NCBI GenBank assembly: GCA_964016885.1
Contig: OZ024742.1
Coordinates: forward strand, 224,378,001 to 224,442,000
DNA length: 64,000 bases
Origin: Eledone cirrhosa
Lineage: Eukaryota
Direction: 5' to 3'
Every line of letters starts with the position of its first letter. The stretch's first letter is position 1. Both the position numbers and the translations under genes were made by a program. The notes under the pieces were generated by a model, which searched no databases, had not been told where the DNA came from, and saw only the letters and a list, made by a program, of their open reading frames with translations. Of the stretch, positions 2,537-24,700 are shown in pieces.

Positions 2537-3095
2537 TACACACATATGATATTCATTATCGTCTCCATCAATTACTCTACAGAGCAGGAGACAGATATAT
2601 AGATATATTTACAGTTGTTTTCAAGCAGCTCTATAAAATATCTCTTTCTGTAGAATCGATAAAAATATTTGAACACTTAGAAGTCAACCTTCTAGACGTT
2701 TCCTTCCATCTTTGATCTAATATGTTTATTAAAAGTTGTCTGTCCTCAGACAAGATTACCTCACCACCATAAAGATATTATTTATTGAAAGGAGGCCTGA
2801 TTGTTATTATTATTATTAAAAAAAAAAGGAAAAGAAATAGAAAAAAATAATAGAAACAATTATTATTATTATTATTATTATTGAATGCCATGGTTGACGG
2901 AGGCTCGGCTCTGTAAGGTATAGTAATTTTTAACCGTTAAAACAATTGTAAATTGTTTAAAACTTGAACCAAATTGTTGATAAAGACACCCTCCTCCTCG
3001 TGAGAGGGGTCTTTCTGTCCGTTATTTGGCCCTTCGGGGTTAAATAGCCAGTTATTGGGGTTTTGTACCCAAAATTTCATTTTAAACAAAAAAAC

Positions 3096-5195
3096 ATGGC
3101 TACCAAAAAAAAAAAATTTCATACGTCACTCCCACTCATTCCGTCTTCTTCTTCCTCAATCATCACTACAGGAGAGAGAAGATTGTCTCTCTCCCTCCCT
3201 TCTTTAAATGTGTCTCTCTCCCTACCTTCTCTTTCGCAAGCGACGAAAGAAAAGAAAAGTCTCGTGCAAAGCGTGCAAGGTTTCTCCACGACGACGACGA
3301 CAGCGACGAAACAGGTGTGCGGGAAATACGAAAACCCAGTTCATTCGTCTGACGTCAGGAATAATAGCAGTAGCAGCCGTAATAACAACAGCAACAGTGA
3401 CAATGAAAACAACAGTAGCAGCCGCAACAGCATCACCAGCAGCATAAACAACAACAGCATTAGCAGCAGCAACACCAACAACAACCACAGCAACAGCGGC
3501 GGAGGCAGTAGTCGTAGTACCTGCAGCAACAACAAAAGTACCAGCAGCTCTGACGACAACAACAACAGCAGAGAAAAACCAATCTCATTTGCAGGTATTA
3601 CGAAAAACCTGGAAACAATCCTCATAACAAATGAGGAATTAGAGGAAGCGAAGAAGATGGTGACAAAGAACGGACACCGAGCAATCTGCAAGGCAGCGAA
3701 AAATTTTTTCGAAACCCAAGAGCACTGTACGGTCACGTACCGTACAGTAAGTACAAAATCCCGTAGGGTGGAAAGAGCCACAGAGGCCCAAATACAAAAA
3801 GCCTTGGGGTCTGTGTGGCAGAGGAAAACGCACATCACCCGAGGCAAAAAATACGCCACCGTAGACGTACTTTTTGCCACACCCCAGGAGGCAAAGGCCC
3901 AATCAGTAGTGACCCTAAGGAGCGAGGAAATGGTGTTGGTGCCCTCCTACTGCGGGCAAAAAATTGTGAGGGTCAAACTGACCCACGTCCCCCCCGGAAT
4001 GACCCCTTCTTGGCTGGCCGCGTCTGTCCTCGTCGGAATCGAGGACAAAACAACTGTACTGCAAGTACAGAAAAAAGTAAGAGAAGATTGGGTCGGCTCC
4101 TCCATTGAGATGCTAATCCAAACCAACCAGGAGTGCATCGAAGCTATCCCGGATGTGATAGACTTCGATAACGGCACTCAACTGCCCATAAGTGTTGAGG
4201 GCAAACGCCCGAAATGCTTTCGCTGTGGATCGAAGACTCACCTCAGGGCCTTCTGCAACGAGAAGACCATGAGAAAGGAGAAAACCCCCCTCCTCCCGAA
4301 TCCGGTTCCACGGCTACCAGCAACAGGACAAGCGGCAACCAGGAACGATAGGTCCGTGGCACCCATACCCACTCCACGGAAATCAAAGACAGCAGCAGCA
4401 GTGGAAATATTAACAACAACAACAGCAATACCAAATGCAGCTGCAACAGAGACTCCAGTGCAAACATCACCAACAACAACAAGTGAAAGAGTGGAGCTGG
4501 TACCCCTCCCCGACCTTACAGAATCAGACATGGAGTGTGAGGTGGGAGAGGGATGGCAAAAGGTCTCAAGAAGGCACAAACGCAGAAGCAGCGCATCGTC
4601 GCCTTTGAAAAGGGAGGAAAGAAATGAGAAAAGGGTAAAGTCTACTGCAAAGAGACCCACAGCAGCAACACCACCAACACCATCACCACCCACACCAGCA
4701 CCACCATCACCACCGGCGACAACCCCACCGCCAACAACACCTTCAACACCACCACCACAAGCACCAACATCGCAAACACAACAACAAAACACACACACCC
4801 AGCAACAACGACAAGAAAATAGCAGAACCACACCCCACCCCCAGAAAAACAAATGCACGGCAATAAACACACACAACAAGAAACTAATGACTTACATAAT
4901 TGAACACACAGACATTTCACAACAGGACTACATAATACCAGCACCAATCAAAACGCCAACTAACATAAGACTGCTAAAAATAGCACAGAAACAATACACA
5001 AACATTAAAACGAAATTCCCCAACGCAGTTGGTGATTTCAGGGACCTAGGAGGAACCATTAATCGAAGAGTATATTCAGACATTCTCTTAGAAGAGCCGA
5101 CGACCAGCCGAAGGGACGATTCAACGGTCCCTTCACCAGACGATCAAGTGAAAAGGGATGTAAAAACCATCCCTCCTCTACCAAAAATACGGTAA
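3096..5195 (+). CDS. LINE ORF1 (gag-like nucleic-acid-binding protein with CCHC zinc knuckle)
   Basis: Open frame from ATG at 3096 (the track's 3063 start is TTG). Contains CFRCGSKTHLRAFC (CX2CX4HX4C) plus Ser/Asn- and Pro/Thr-rich low-complexity segments. Ends 35 bp before ORF2. Confidence 0.85.
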   Translation: MATKKKKFHTSLPLIPSSSSSIITTGERRLSLSLPSLNVSLSLPSLSQATKEKKSLVQSVQGFSTTTTTATKQVCGKYENPVHSSDVRNNSSSSRNNNSNSDNENNSSSRNSITSSINNNSISSSNTNNNHSNSGGGSSRSTCSNNKSTSSSDDNNNSREKPISFAGITKNLETILITNEELEEAKKMVTKNGHRAICKAAKNFFETQEHCTVTYRTVSTKSRRVERATEAQIQKALGSVWQRKTHITRGKKYATVDVLFATPQEAKAQSVVTLRSEEMVLVPSYCGQKIVRVKLTHVPPGMTPSWLAASVLVGIEDKTTVLQVQKKVREDWVGSSIEMLIQTNQECIEAIPDVIDFDNGTQLPISVEGKRPKCFRCGSKTHLRAFCNEKTMRKEKTPLLPNPVPRLPATGQAATRNDRSVAPIPTPRKSKTAAAVEILTTTTAIPNAAATETPVQTSPTTTSERVELVPLPDLTESDMECEVGEGWQKVSRRHKRRSSASSPLKREERNEKRVKSTAKRPTAATPPTPSPPTPAPPSPPATTPPPTTPSTPPPQAPTSQTQQQNTHTQQQRQENSRTTPHPQKNKCTAINTHNKKLMTYIIEHTDISQQDYIIPAPIKTPTNIRLLKIAQKQYTNIKTKFPNAVGDFRDLGGTINRRVYSDILLEEPTTSRRDDSTVPSPDDQVKRDVKTIPPLPKIR

Positions 5196-5230
5196 GTGGT
5201 CTTTCCCATCTTTTCCACTCTATTTTAAAC

Positions 5231-8200
5231 ATGACCTCACTCAGAATAGGCAGCATAAATGCGCGTGGCTTGGGGTCGTCATGGAAGCAGGGTCACCTGC
5301 TCAACGACCTCAGGTCACTAAACATAGATGTAGTGGCCATCAGCGAGACCAGAATCTCCGAAGCACGGGCCTTCGCACCGATCTTCGGCGGCTACGATGT
5401 GTACGCATCTCCCAGCCGTCCTGGATCGGGTGGAGGAGTTGCTGTGCTTTTTCGGAGAGGTTTGGATCTCGCCATACGGGCCATCTTCCTGGACCCAGAG
5501 GGTAAGCTGGTGGTGCTGGACGTGACCAGCGGAGACGGGCAAGCTTTCAGGCTAGTGGCCGCCTATGCCCCGACAGGAGCAGGGCGGCCTGATTTCTTCC
5601 GGCGTCTGGAGACCTTTCTTGGAACGTCGCGCTCTTTAGTGTTAGTGGGCGACTGGAACGGGATCTTAGATGCACGCTGGGACTGTGTGGGATTAGCGGA
5701 TAGGGGTGGAGGGTGCAAGAGCCTCACCAACCTGCTCAGGCGTTTTGAACTGTCTGACAGGTACCGATTGGATTTCCCGAATGTGCCAATGTGGACTTGG
5801 ACAAACCGCATAGGGTCATCCAGATCATATCTAGATAGAGTATTTTGTAGGGAAATAGATAGGTCTAGCATAGGCTGTCCACAATTCAAGATAGTCAGCT
5901 ACACGGACCACAAATTCGTGATCTGTGTGCTTGACTTAGATAGGCTTCATAGACGAGGACCCGGCTACTGGAAGCTAAACGCGTCCTTACCAGCGCGCAA
6001 GGCCTACAGAGACCGGATTAGCGAACTAGTTAAGCGGGCGTTGACGGGGGCCATCATCAACAACAAGTGGTGGTTTGCTCTGAAAAGAGCGATTAGAATA
6101 GAATCGATTAGGTTTAGTAAGGCTTTAGCAATAGAGAAAAATAGAGCAGAGGGAAAACTAGTTAGAAAATTAGACGAGGCGCTTAGCAAAGGCATTGCGA
6201 CCGACGTGCTTGCGGCGAAATTGGCCCTTGACCAATTCTTCAATGCAAAGCACGAAGGCTGCGTTGTCAGAGCAAGGGTGCGTGCTCTCAGACACGAGGG
6301 GACGAAAGCCGTTCAATGGGCCCGAGTGGCGGAGGCGCGTCATGGCAACAAAGCCACGATCCGGTCTTTGGTGGACCACGACGGGCGCATGCTACTCGAT
6401 CCCGGGCAAATGTGTGAAGCTTTTCAGCGACACTTCGCTCAGCTGTTCGGGGGCAGCGGGGGGCCGGGTAGAGGGATGGACTTTAGTGTCTACCTCGACG
6501 GACTGCCGCGGCTCTCGGCCACTGAGGCGAGGTGTTGCGAAAAGCCGATAACAGCCGCTGAAGTACGGGAGGCAATGACTGGCTGCACAAGGGGTAAATC
6601 GCCTGGTTTGGATGGTCTGCCCTATGAACTTTACGTACAGATGCCAGACTTGTTCGGAGGCCTCTTGGCGGACGTCTACTGCAACTGGCAACAGAACGGG
6701 AGAATTCCCAGTTCTGTGAGCCGAGGAGCGGTGGCACTGCTGAGAAAGGATCCGAACAAGGGGGATAACATAGACAATTTCCGGCCCATAACTCTGCTAA
6801 ACACAGAGTTTAAGATTTTGGCCAAGGTGCTAGCAAAGAGGTTGGCGCTTGTCGTTGGTGGTCTGGTGGGAGAGGCGCAGACATGCGCCATTCCCGACAG
6901 ATCCATCCACGACAACCTCCACCTCATGCGATACATCGTAGAGAGGGTAGCTAGGGAACCTGGCACGGGTGGGTCCTTGATCAATTTAGATCAGTCGAAA
7001 GCTTTCGATAGGGTCGACCATCGTTACCTAGCGGCAGTCCTGAGGGCGGCTGGCTTTGGGCCCGTCTTCAGAGGCTGGATCGCTGCCATGCACAGCGACA
7101 TCTGCTCTGTGGTGAGAGTGAACGGTCACCTGTCGGAACCGTTCAACATCATGCGCTCGGTCCGCCAAGGATGTCCCCTCTCGTCCCTCTTGTACGTATT
7201 GACTCTCGAGCCATTACTGCACAAACTGGAGACGTTGAGGGGAGTCCCGCGCGAACTAGGATGCGGAAGATCCGTGTCAGCATATGCGGACGATGTCACC
7301 GTAGTGGTGTCGAACGCCAAACACATCGAGGCGATCGGCACTACACTAAGAGAATACGAAGCGGTGACAGGAGCAATGATCAACCAGGAAAAGTCAGTGG
7401 GCCTGCAGCTCGGCACCTGGAGAGGCAGGTCCATGCCGTCCAACAGCGTCGTCGGGCGCTGGACGGACGGACCGGTTAAATTGCTAGGGGTCTGGTTCGG
7501 TCCGGACCTCCAGACGGACAAAAACTGGGACGAGGTGACGAGCAGGGTGGCTTCTCTCACCCAGAAATGGGCGGAGAGGAAGCTATCCCTGAAAGGTCGA
7601 GCGGAGGTGGCTAACGCGTACATCGCGTCTGTCATCTGCTACCGCCTAACCGTCGTACCTTGTCCTAAGCCTCGCCTGACTGCGCTGGAGCGTTTGCTCT
7701 TTCGCTTTTTGTGGAAGGGACGTGCTCCGATGGTCAGGCGGTCCATCTGTTGTCAACACCCGCTACGTGGAGGGCTGGGCATGCCGTGGCTGATGATGCG
7801 CAGGCACGCGCTCAGGCTACGACATCTCCACCTCTTCCTCGACGGTGATCAGGTGTGGTCGCCGTTTGCTAGACGCGTTTTTCCCCAGCTCGTTTCCTTG
7901 ACGGAGCTGCAGTCCTGGGTCAAGCGAAGACCGAGAGGGAGCGCCTGGAGACTGGAATGTCTTCAGGCGCTCACAGCCCTCGACCAATCGGGCAATGTGA
8001 TCGGTGGAAACTCCACCTCGGCGTTCTATAGAGGATTAGTGGAGGGGAAGAGCGACGACGTACTTGGGGAAACTCTAGGCGTCGACGAAAATCAACTAGC
8101 CAATCTCTTCGGAAGAACTTTCGGGCCGGGGCCTATGGACAACTTCCAGAAATCTCTGGCCTGGCAGTGCTACCGAGGAGCCTTGCCAGTTCGGGATAAA

Positions 8201-8650
8201 CTCTACAGGCATGGAGGTGCCGTCAATCGGGCATGTCCGAGATGCGCGCAGGGCGACGAAACCGTCCTGCACGCACTCGTCCAGTGTCCGAAAATTGCTG
8301 ACTTGTGGGTTTATGTCGAACACCTGCTGTCGCGTTTAGGACGGATCCAGCTATCATCTGAGTCCATCGTGAGGATTGCCCCGCCCTCCTCCTTTAGCCG
8401 GGAAGGGCAGGCAGTTTTTATCTGTCTGGTGGCCATGGCGAAAGAGATAGTATGGTGGACACGTTTGAAAGGGCTGAAGACGAGCACTTACCTCTTCGGT
8501 GATGCTCTGATTGACTTTTTCAAATTTCATTTGAAAAGGAAAATCAGAGTAGAGAGGGAAGTGCTCTCTTCCCAGCATTTTGTTGAAAGATGGGTGAGAG
8601 AAGCAAGAATGGCCCGAGTGAATGGGCCGACTCTGAGTATATATCTGTAA
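5231..8650 (+). CDS. LINE ORF2: APE endonuclease, reverse transcriptase and C-terminal Cys/His motif (L1/Tx1 clade)
   Basis: 1139 aa uninterrupted. APE motifs SINARGL, SET, GDWN, YLDR, YTDH. RT motifs KSPGLDG, FRPITLLN, KAFDRV, RQGCPLS, YADD. C-terminal CPRC..ETVLHALVQC. Confidence 0.97.
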   Translation: MTSLRIGSINARGLGSSWKQGHLLNDLRSLNIDVVAISETRISEARAFAPIFGGYDVYASPSRPGSGGGVAVLFRRGLDLAIRAIFLDPEGKLVVLDVTSGDGQAFRLVAAYAPTGAGRPDFFRRLETFLGTSRSLVLVGDWNGILDARWDCVGLADRGGGCKSLTNLLRRFELSDRYRLDFPNVPMWTWTNRIGSSRSYLDRVFCREIDRSSIGCPQFKIVSYTDHKFVICVLDLDRLHRRGPGYWKLNASLPARKAYRDRISELVKRALTGAIINNKWWFALKRAIRIESIRFSKALAIEKNRAEGKLVRKLDEALSKGIATDVLAAKLALDQFFNAKHEGCVVRARVRALRHEGTKAVQWARVAEARHGNKATIRSLVDHDGRMLLDPGQMCEAFQRHFAQLFGGSGGPGRGMDFSVYLDGLPRLSATEARCCEKPITAAEVREAMTGCTRGKSPGLDGLPYELYVQMPDLFGGLLADVYCNWQQNGRIPSSVSRGAVALLRKDPNKGDNIDNFRPITLLNTEFKILAKVLAKRLALVVGGLVGEAQTCAIPDRSIHDNLHLMRYIVERVAREPGTGGSLINLDQSKAFDRVDHRYLAAVLRAAGFGPVFRGWIAAMHSDICSVVRVNGHLSEPFNIMRSVRQGCPLSSLLYVLTLEPLLHKLETLRGVPRELGCGRSVSAYADDVTVVVSNAKHIEAIGTTLREYEAVTGAMINQEKSVGLQLGTWRGRSMPSNSVVGRWTDGPVKLLGVWFGPDLQTDKNWDEVTSRVASLTQKWAERKLSLKGRAEVANAYIASVICYRLTVVPCPKPRLTALERLLFRFLWKGRAPMVRRSICCQHPLRGGLGMPWLMMRRHALRLRHLHLFLDGDQVWSPFARRVFPQLVSLTELQSWVKRRPRGSAWRLECLQALTALDQSGNVIGGNSTSAFYRGLVEGKSDDVLGETLGVDENQLANLFGRTFGPGPMDNFQKSLAWQCYRGALPVRDKLYRHGGAVNRACPRCAQGDETVLHALVQCPKIADLWVYVEHLLSRLGRIQLSSESIVRIAPPSSFSREGQAVFICLVAMAKEIVWWTRLKGLKTSTYLFGDALIDFFKFHLKRKIRVEREVLSSQHFVERWVREARMARVNGPTLSIYL

Positions 8651-9151: not shown

Positions 9152-9884
9152 TTTGCAGCATAGAGTTACGCCCCTTTATGATCTGAGTTCAAATCCCGCC
9201 GAGGTTAACTTTGCGTTTCATCCTTACAGGGTCGATAAAATAAAGTACCAGTAATACACTGGGATAATTGCTGGCCTTGTGCCAAAAGTAGAAACAATTA
9301 TATATATATAGTTGGATGGTATTCCGTTTAAGGGAATGTAGAGGAACCACAATTAAAGCAAGGTACTCAATACACCTAGTAGAGAAGATTCTGTATTTTA
9401 TTTACAGGATTAGTTCTGTGTCATTCGTGGATTTGCAGTCGATTTCATCATTGAATAAAATCGAATTCGTCCCGATCCTGTAAATGTTACCTCTAAATAA
9501 AATCATCATCATTATAATCCTCCTCATCATCGTCATAATCATTTAATGCAGGGGTGGATTTAGAACTGGTGGCGGGACAGAGGTTTGGGGCGCCCGGGGC
9601 ACTTCAGATTTTGAGGTGGGCCCTCATACACAAAAGAAGTAACATGTACAACATGGCGTGGTGTTTGTAATCGGAAATGTGCACTTTCTACAATTAAACG
9701 TTCTTATGAATATACACAAGCACTCACACATACCCTAGTGTATATATATATATATATATATGAATATAGACATAGAATATTCGAAAATATTCTGTATGTT
9801 TATAATAAACATTTTGAAGACCTAATCGCTATAGAATAGAATACGTCACGTATTACAATTAGATTCTCGATAAAAGCAAGGGAA

Positions 9885-9927
9885 GTAATCTACGCGTTTC
9901 ATTCTTGTTAGAAATCATCAGGACTAC
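9885..9927 (-). ncRNA. Minimal type I hammerhead ribozyme (array copy 1)
   Basis: Reverse complement reads GUAGUC-CUGAUGA-UUUCU AACA AGAAU-GAAA-CGCG-UA-GAUUAC. Confidence 0.8.
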
Positions 9928-10194
9928 ATATCCAGTGCTTTTATCGAGAATGACACAGCTAGAGACTTATAGAATACTTAGCTGTGTACAGGAACTGGTT
10001 TGAAAGAGCGGTTGCCGGTCCGGCAGAAATTAGAAATTGGAATAAATGCTCTGAAATAGCGATATATATGTGAATATAGACATAGAATATTCGAAAATAT
10101 TCTGTATGTTTATAATAAACATTTTGAAGACCTAATCGCTATAGAATAGAATACGTCACGTATTACAATTAGATTCTCGATAAAAGCAAGGGAA

Positions 10195-10237
10195 GTAATC
10201 TACGCGTTTCATTCTTGTTAGAAATCATCAGGACTAC
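10195..10237 (-). ncRNA. Minimal type I hammerhead ribozyme (array copy 2)
   Basis: Same sequence as the 9885-9927 copy, 310 bp away. Confidence 0.8.
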
Positions 10238-10301
10238 ATATCCAGTGCTTTTATCGAGAATGACACAGCTAGAGACTTATAGAATACTTAGCACTGGATA
10301 T

Positions 10302-10344
10302 GTAGTCCTGATGATTTCTAACAAGAATGAAACGCGTAGATTAC
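10302..10344 (+). ncRNA. Minimal type I hammerhead ribozyme (array copy 3)
   Basis: Stem I GTAGTC/GATTAC; core CTGATGA 10308-10314; stem II TTCT/AGAA; GAAA 10329-10332; palindromic ACGCGT stem III; predicted GUA cleavage after 10338. Confidence 0.82.
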
Positions 10345-10611
10345 TTCCCTTGCTTTTATCGAGAATCTAATTGTAATACGTGACGTATTCTATTCTATAG
10401 CGATTAGGTCTTCAAAATGTTTATTATAAACATACAGAATATTTTCGAATATTCTATGTCTATATTCACATATATATCGCTATTTCAGAGCATTTATTCC
10501 AATTTCTAATTTCTGCCGGACCGGCAACCGCTCTTTCAAACCAGTTCCTGTACACAGCTAAGTATTCTATAAGTCTCTAGCTGTGTCATTCTCGATAAAA
10601 GCACTGGATAT

Positions 10612-10654
10612 GTAGTCCTGATGATTTCTAACAAGAATGAAACGCGTAGATTAC
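10612..10654 (+). ncRNA. Minimal type I hammerhead ribozyme (array copy 4)
   Basis: Same sequence as 10302-10344; predicted cleavage after 10648. Confidence 0.82.
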
Positions 10655-10825
10655 TTCCCTTGCTTTTATCGAGAATCTAATTGTAATACGTGACGTATTC
10701 TATTCTATAGCGATTAGGTCTTCAAAATGTTTATTATAAACATACAGAATATTTTCGAATATTCTATGTCTATATTCACATATATATCGCTATTTCAGAG
10801 CATTTATTCCAATATATATATATGT

Positions 10826-11028
10826 AAATAACGAAGGAAATGTGGTAAGGAACCAGGTGGACCATAACGCACCAAAGTACTCAATACTTAGGGTAGTAGA
10901 GTGGGTAATAGGAACGAGTAGGACCCCGACGGCTGAGCTCAAGCCATTTCGACGGCTAATTCTGGACTAAAATGTCCAGAATTAGCCGTCGAAACGGCTT
11001 GAGCTCAGCCGTCGGGGTCCTACTCGTT

Positions 11029-11032
<4 letters not shown>
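10826..11032. mobile_element. TA-embedded PLE-like terminal fragment (family C) with inverted duplication and 3' half of an HHR
   Basis: Inverted arms of about 59 bp around TAAAAT; contains GAAAC-GGCT-TGAGCTC-AGCC-GTC. Related copies at about 19829, 21011, 28020, 35707, 45989 and 59602. Confidence 0.7.
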
Positions 11033-24304: not shown

Positions 24305-24652
24305 CAGACTTGCCAACCTCTAAAAACCCAAACAGGGAGAAATGAGGCAAAACGGGGAGATTTTACATAATTTTTTCTACTTTTGGCACAAGGCCAGCAA
24401 ATACCCAGTGTATTACTGGTACTTTATTTTATCGACCTCGTAAGGATGAAAGGCAAAGTTAACCTCGGCGGGATTTGAACACAGAATGGCAAGGGCCGTA
24501 ACTCTATGCGTCAAAGCATGGCATCCGACCTTCTACCGATACTGCCAATCCACAATGACAGCTATACCCATTTTCACAAGAGAAGACATCTCTCACCTAC
24601 CCCAAAGTGGGTGGGAGACCTCCCCATCAGACGGGGTGAGTTGACAGTTCTG
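24305..24652. mobile_element. Non-autonomous TIR element (MITE) split by an S1 SINE (24370-24553)
   Basis: Ends CAGACTTGCCAAC...GTTGACAGTTCTG. An uninterrupted copy lies at about 40719-40913. Confidence 0.75.
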
Positions 24653-24700
24653 TATATGTGTATATGTGAATGATATTTAATGAATAAAGTCGTTTCTTAC

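Follow-up and report, generated by a model that had tools for sequence, protein, structure and literature searches.

The locus at positions 9761–10813 of the analysed window (the whole 64,000-nt stretch of Eledone cirrhosa DNA) is one member of a young family of non-LTR retrozymes. It consists of two inverted, head-to-head arms of about 1.7 units each, flanked by (TA)n tracts. The family is a non-LTR retrozyme by its unit, ribozyme, and copy number, and on sequence grounds it appears to behave like a non-autonomous Penelope-like element (PLE). Mobilisation in the manner of PLEs is very probable. It is also likely, with less confidence, that the insertions are retrozymes with PLE ends, for which a PLE protein copies one circular 310-nt RNA by rolling-circle reverse transcription from both cut strands of the target. 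The fixed short and long ends, the (TA)n target, and the sharing of haplotypes between arms all bear on the mechanism, and all were missed by an earlier sequence-only reading of the window.

Organisation of the locus

The features of the locus are given below, with unit positions numbered from the predicted ribozyme cut site.

9741–9760, no strand: (TA)n target microsatellite, left flank, from the sequence (TA-rich outer flanks also occur at the sampled loci)
9761–10292, minus (RNA sense on minus): left arm, 532 nt, 1.7 units; outer end at unit 130 (short), inner end at unit 219
9863–9951, minus: type I hammerhead 4, complete extended stem I; predicted cut 9891/9890
10173–10261, minus: type I hammerhead 3, complete extended stem I; predicted cut 10201/10200
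10290–10292, no strand: inner junction, a 3-nt microhomology (overlap) joining the arms, as read at the junction
10290–10813, plus: right arm, 524 nt, 1.7 units; outer end at unit 165 (long), inner end at unit 262
10293–10358, plus: type I hammerhead 1, distal stem I shortened by the junction; predicted cut after 10338
10339–10648, plus: 310-nt monomer, cut site to cut site; its ends pair, re-forming stem I
10568–10573, plus: TATA-like box, unit 230–235, a candidate promoter, invariant across three aligned families
10588–10676, plus: type I hammerhead 2, complete extended stem I; predicted cut after 10648
10727–10765, plus: two conserved hairpins, unit 79–95 and 98–117, just upstream of the short end, with compensatory changes in sibling families
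10779–10813, plus: 35-nt "tail", unit 131–165, at the right end only
10814–10823, no strand: (TA)n target microsatellite, right flank, from the sequence

The sequence-only reading had described a tandem array with four apparently identical hammerheads, two per strand, 310 nt apart. The four ribozymes were recovered with this spacing (cores CUGAUGA...GAAA...UA at +10308, +10618, −10231, and −9921), and the proposed monomer on the plus strand (10339–10648) is the exact reverse complement of 9891–10200. The repeat itself is real, but it is not a four-unit tandem: the two 1.7-unit arms are inverted and overlap by 3 nt, with 100% complementarity across 489 nt. The extended stem I that had been assigned to every ribozyme is whole in three of the four, whereas the copy at +10308 misses most of its distal 5′ strand. 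Similarly, the second hairpin (ACACAGCTA/TAGCTGTGT) said to lie beside each ribozyme is complete in only two (10618 and 9921). The unit was rightly described as having no ORF; its longest stop-to-stop frame is 59 aa. As in other retrozymes, the units are tandem, fall within 170–400 nt, each carry a type I hammerhead, are low in GC and ORF-free, and are dispersed in multiple copies.

A small inverted element at 10826–11030 adjoins the array inside the same (TA)n tract, and recurs in L121, L123, L145, and L150. It is very deep in sequencing run X2, and a scan of it for the hammerhead core found none.

Ribozyme and RNA structure

The conserved core of the type I hammerhead (CUGANGA, GAAA, and NUH) is present in full. 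The Rfam model Hammerhead_HH9 matches exactly the four sites with 19.2 bits (E 0.12), which does not reach its gathering score of 52; in the Rfam scan of the whole window, no match was found at or above any gathering score. Matches to miRNA models at the E-value threshold were rejected as generic hairpin matches. The hammerhead pattern is not a chance occurrence, because the exact 43-nt ribozyme has 4,177 matches in the genome and its reversed control has none. The G10.1-C11.1 pair at the base of stem II is absent, with U-U in its place, or A-U in some haplotypes. The U-U had been raised earlier as a caveat; it is present, but it carries little weight as an objection, since it is known from the axolotl HHR_Amex2 (PMC7229834) and is also found in a coding PLE of the same genome.

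The monomer fold is more stable than 100 of 100 shuffles (z = −4.38), and its two ends re-form stem I. Stem III is palindromic in three families (6–12 nt; ACGCGU here), and tandem hammerheads are described to cleave as dimers via such a palindromic stem (PMC4209133). The identification as a retrozyme whose hammerhead is of type I and whose stem III is palindromic was borne out by the sibling families, which keep the palindrome in different letters and have covarying stems. Among 19 sequences of the three families, 11 of 27 base pairs have changed on both sides (in distal stem I, stem II, and the two hairpins). The covariation score of 0.36 was reached by none of 500 shuffles and compares with 0.06–0.16 in slid controls; as the structure was drawn from the same alignment, of three lineages only, this is supportive and carries no probability. 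Pairing in distal stem I and stem II was judged by covariation, and in the proximal part of stem I by inspection only. The two hairpins at unit 79–117 are a candidate RT-binding signal.

Variants fixed across arms fall at N7, in loop II, and in the stems. None of 20 hits the invariant core, versus 3 of 76 sporadic variants, numbers too few for significance. Reads from three sequencing runs of unrecorded kind give a single contig of 340 nt for the unit (310+30, a closed cycle). Tandem DNA at low depth would give this too, and the contig speaks neither for nor against an RNA circle.

Family size and spread

Genome copy counts are pattern matches. An 18-nt anchor tolerating one known variant gave 16,585 matches, which is the minimum unit count, so that the genome-wide count proposed earlier as a check returned a multicopy family of at least this size. 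The unit makes up about 5 Mb, or 0.17% of the 3.0 Gb genome, mainly as long perfect palindromes. The number of insertions was estimated at 1,900–2,100 (about 2,000) from the counts of ends and from how these overlap on contig C1, presuming that both ends are present in every insertion.

Insertion ends, target, and joining

Junctions were read in 53 insertions, and then in 47 more from 60 loci, of which 47 were chosen from unpaired ends; 13 of these 60 loci were single-armed. All sampled insertions come from contig C1, apart from the window's own, and the last four regions of one set were chosen by length. All 100 two-armed insertions are head-to-head, and the target is a TA-rich microsatellite in each except one, which was unreadable. 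One arm ends about 130 nt past the cut site and the other about 165 nt past it in 99 of 99 classifiable insertions; in the remaining one, an arm ran off the stretch. The end classes were assigned by script in 51/53 and 29/47 insertions, and 2 and 17 were reclassified by eye (20/99 is also given) for long ends at 170–172, variant-masked ends, and one interrupted arm. The first 11 two-armed loci, chosen by ribozyme matches alone, each have one end at 130–139 and the other at 165–167. L169 holds two copies with a common junction, probably one event that was duplicated.

The same regularity was observed in the genome-wide counts. TA junction patterns gave 1,294 ends of the short type and 1,225 of the long type. 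The matches listed on contig C1, as far as 201.7 Mb, include 186 ends; all 59 divergent end pairs within 20 kb among them combine a short and a long end, and 6 convergent neighbours and 68 unpaired ends were also found.

PLEs are described to have an inverted 5′-truncated copy, a 30–40 bp tail often at one end only, and a bias for microsatellites (PMC8557442). The Anolis PLE cuts both strands in vitro, and its reverse transcription has two internal start sites, which delimit the tail (PMC11167929). All of these insertion hallmarks (inverted truncated copy, one-sided tail, microsatellite target) are found here, and the match of the 35-nt end difference, the inversion, and the target to the described signature links the family to Penelope. 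Any target-site duplication would be masked by the (TA)n flanks.

Inserts are present at 19 of 53 inner junctions, and the insert-free junctions have microhomology of at least 2 nt in 23 of 34 cases, versus 18% by chance. Foreign sequence was caught between the arms in two cases, 272 nt (L036:3099–3370) and about 54 nt (L277:1030–1083). Such captured DNA suggests template jumps to other nucleic acids.

Related elements in the same genome

Older sibling families gave 1,149 pattern matches, and one copy is 69% alike over 385 aligned nt. Among the loci listed, the sibling families keep both end points and the inversion. The genome also has a coding PLE (L114:3600–7500, L115, L118, L122, L074) with RT and GIY-YIG domains (RVT_1 below the cut-off, GIY-YIG above it) and a U-U hammerhead after the ORF, whose ribozyme has 5,579 matches. 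It ends about 125 and 160 nt past its hammerhead (L118 and L099, read by eye). This same short and long geometry supports the PLE link of the 310-nt repeat; between the coding PLE (L118, L099) and the unit no significant sequence match was found. Many short head-to-head copies of the coding PLE run through the hammerhead and break off 40–50 nt upstream of it, at a point some 30 nt below a TATA-like box. These stops suggest an internal promoter and point to an apparent use of linear uncleaved templates.

A PLE ORF attached to the unit, which the sequence-only reading had proposed to look for elsewhere in the genome, did not appear in the loci read. Among 50 loci with GIY-YIG matches or pairs of a further family, B, none has a homologous terminal repeat on the ORF (150 of 10,596 GIY-YIG candidates were scored). 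Several candidates were rejected. In L117 and L121, family B is present as small insertions of its own and not as ORF termini, the sibling copies near GIY-YIG ORFs in L046 and L111 are likewise separate insertions, and the ORFs beside L234 resemble, by eye, those of an unrelated LINE. Other ORFs near arrays of the second set were judged by position only.

Family B has 8,740 exact matches, and its hammerhead-like core shares stem II with the 310-nt unit. Its copies are tiny head-to-head (TA)n insertions with short and long ends, and each arm breaks off a short way upstream of the core. They were located as follows.

25171–25356, 25422–25480, and 32624–32793 of the window: family B copies
L117:3130–3325 and L121:8005–8205: family B copies

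The stretch upstream of the ribozyme, unit 226–265 (window 10564–10603), looks like the hammerhead region of family B in reverse complement (74% over 80 nt versus B junctions) and was possibly left by an ancient inversion. L123:8200–10000 holds another kind of tandem hammerhead repeat, about 500 nt long; its unit includes its own (TA)n tract of variable length.

Arms, haplotypes, and the template

In 454 full units from 90 arms, the haplotypes are locus-specific. The haplotypes of the two arms coincide in 66 of 71 insertions, where chance would give about 10: 37/39 in the first set (permuted mean 6.1, maximum 15) and 29/32 in the second (permuted mean 3.7, maximum 11). Within agreeing insertions, private variants are fixed through 17–22 units. 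Five insertions are discordant: three involve single-unit arms differing at one or two letters; in L242, the arms differ at one fixed variant; in L185, the two arms share their starting haplotype and 15 units of the long arm then carry a different one, which is likely a template switch between two RNAs, or else assembly mixing. No accumulation of inner ends is seen at the cut site: 5/200 lie within 5 nt of it (6.5 expected if uniform). Their distribution is flat for the first set (chi-square P 0.87); for the second set it leans towards positions below the start sites, a pattern expected of short arms. The arm lengths fit an exponential distribution (KS P 0.28, mean 1,598 nt). One haplotype per insertion, together with the lack of a pile-up at the cut, agrees with target-primed reverse transcription of one circular monomer in rolling-circle fashion.

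The proposed sequence of events is as follows. Transcription would start inside an arm. Tandem hammerheads would then release the monomer, probably as dimers via the ACGCGU palindrome, and ligation would close the circle, as the structure and other retrozymes suggest. A PLE protein with RT and GIY-YIG domains would bind near the two conserved hairpins and cut both strands of the (TA)n tract, which is the observed target. One strand would prime about 130 nt past the cut site and the other about 165 nt past it, in agreement with the observed ends. Each cDNA would make a random number of turns, about five on average, straight through the ligation site of the presumed circle, as the observed lengths and breakpoints indicate. 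The two cDNA ends would finally be joined via the microhomology or small templated inserts seen at the junctions, giving the head-to-head palindrome.

It is unlikely, on balance, that PLE priming from two strands instead has as its template a linear, uncleaved multimer made by transcription of an existing array, with circles, if made, as a by-product. Two observations count for such a template and against the circle: uncleaved linear RNA is the dominant substrate of the Anolis PLE in vitro (PMC11167929), and the short copies of the coding PLE stop below their TATA-like box, upstream of the hammerhead. The TATA-like box is conserved in the 310-nt unit as well, and a homogeneous source array would likewise give both arms one haplotype. 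Genome counts lose 403 matches over unit 258–265 versus 219 over 250–257, as a transcript start would give, and the right arm of the window ends at 262. However, a haplotype variant at 260 (L274) can account for this excess. Positions 259–266 hold only 7 of the 200 inner ends (5.2 expected), and the apparent internal start hotspot there was not reproduced (6/106 in the first loci, 1/94 in the second). A toy model of linear transcripts gives mean lengths of 1.3–1.8 kb only if 78–100% of arms end at the start, versus the 7/200 observed, although it leaves room for outside promoters and for source arrays that are few but very long. Moreover, 37 insertions carry 15 haplotypes, several of them private and fully fixed, which requires a monomer bottleneck.

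A satellite-like origin, as discussed by Li et al. 2026, in which insertions are born short (one or two units per arm) and the arms then multiply their units locally, by slippage or unequal crossing-over, is very unlikely. It also predicts one haplotype per locus, and the sibling families are short-armed at the loci seen. In 52 arms of at least three units, 11 sporadic substitutions are shared among units, as local amplification would produce, but they lie in 5 arms of at least 11 units, and the other 36 are singletons; four arms of 11–44 units have variants in common among their units. Arms exceed two units in 79/102 and 71/94 cases despite mostly identical units, and the older, more diverged families have shorter arms, not longer ones. 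Later local expansion or template switching does occur, as seen in the 5/71 discordant insertions and in the long arms with shared variants. The clearest case of later local expansion is an arm of 45 units (14 kb) in L175 and L176, where variant units recur.

A fold-back artefact of sequencing or assembly, which the complete complementarity of the arms and the lack of any single contig spanning the whole stretch might suggest, and which the sequence-only reading had named as one finding that would overturn it, is hardly credible, because it cannot yield two distinct fixed ends paired short with long in 99/99 insertions, nor asymmetric junctions with microhomology or inserts, and the same geometry is found in older diverged siblings and the coding PLE.

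Comparison with known systems

The family resembles the animal non-LTR retrozymes described in mussel, coral, and axolotl (PMC7229834) in its tandem unit of 170–400 nt, type I hammerhead, short palindromic stem III, low GC, lack of ORFs, thousands of copies, and the U-U of HHR_Amex2. It differs in that the insertions here mostly have two inverted arms with fixed short and long ends in (TA)n; the words "inverted" and "opposite" are absent from the main text of that paper. Circular RNA was demonstrated for those retrozymes, whereas the 310-nt repeat is known from genome sequence. A search of titles and abstract openings returned no report of two-armed retrozyme insertions; a supplementary figure could hold inverted arrays.

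The GIY-YIG PLEs, as described in PMC8557442 and PMC11167929, share the inverted 5′-truncated copy, the 30–40 bp tail, the microsatellite target, a hammerhead upstream of the 3′ ends, and two internal RT starts. Unlike them, the 310-nt repeat is ORF-free, its arms are many head-to-tail turns, and no homologous coding partner was found. MRC1 and other non-autonomous Chlamys elements of Chlamydomonas (PMC8557442) are also PLE dependants with multicopy head-to-tail insertions; however, the Chlamys clade is described there without canonical hammerheads, and its 3′ ends resemble those of autonomous partners.

Retrozymes were likewise regarded as non-autonomous PLE derivatives by Li, Clavereau & Pollet 2026 (10.64898/2026.07.22.740005), on the basis of distribution and phylogeny, mainly in vertebrates, whereas the present argument is based on insertion ends. 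Their Discussion considers local amplification; the data here favour arrays born long. They also describe retrozymes as excluded from introns, while the copy in the window is probably intronic.

These comparisons concern the origin of animal retrozyme arrays and the enzyme that moves them. Tandem cDNA from a circle was put forward as a hypothesis, with PLEs named as candidates (PMC7229834), and the PLE link is phylogenetic (Li 2026). A second question is by which route PLEs make their inverted, tailed insertions (PMC8557442, PMC11167929). The 310-nt family addresses both problems by countable signatures. Its insertion anatomy provides genomic evidence for retrotransposition that is PLE-driven and probably of the rolling-circle kind, and the unit is a substrate with mapped start sites, suited to in vitro work.

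Host gene context

A TALE homeobox exon lies at 24630–25052 on the minus strand. On the other side, an exon 8.4 kb before the window's first base carries what we take to be an IRO-box-like motif. With these two exons on either side, the array probably sits in an Iroquois intron, with its left arm sense to the pre-mRNA. The predicted fold of the whole locus is a single hairpin of −866 kcal/mol, with 1000 of 1053 nt paired. Because the arms are head-to-head, read-through from either side transcribes the antisense arm first. Read-through RNA, including the Iroquois pre-mRNA, is thus predicted to form a 489-bp hairpin masking the ribozymes, which may protect the host RNA from cleavage. The earlier expectation that transcription of either strand would free the monomer is doubtful at this locus for the same reason; with the antisense arm first and the predicted fold-back, release of the monomer would need a transcription start inside an arm.

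A broader scheme can be offered tentatively, with a little more doubt than belief. One PLE complex, one circle made by the ribozymes, and two fixed priming sites might suffice for the whole insertion, the tail and the inversion reflecting two first-strand starts; the resulting palindrome might mask its own ribozymes, permit residence in introns of developmental genes, and supply long dsRNA.

The same presumed Iroquois intron also contains a LINE at 3048–8650 of the window, with frames of 715 aa and 1195 aa (endonuclease, RT, and zf-RVT).
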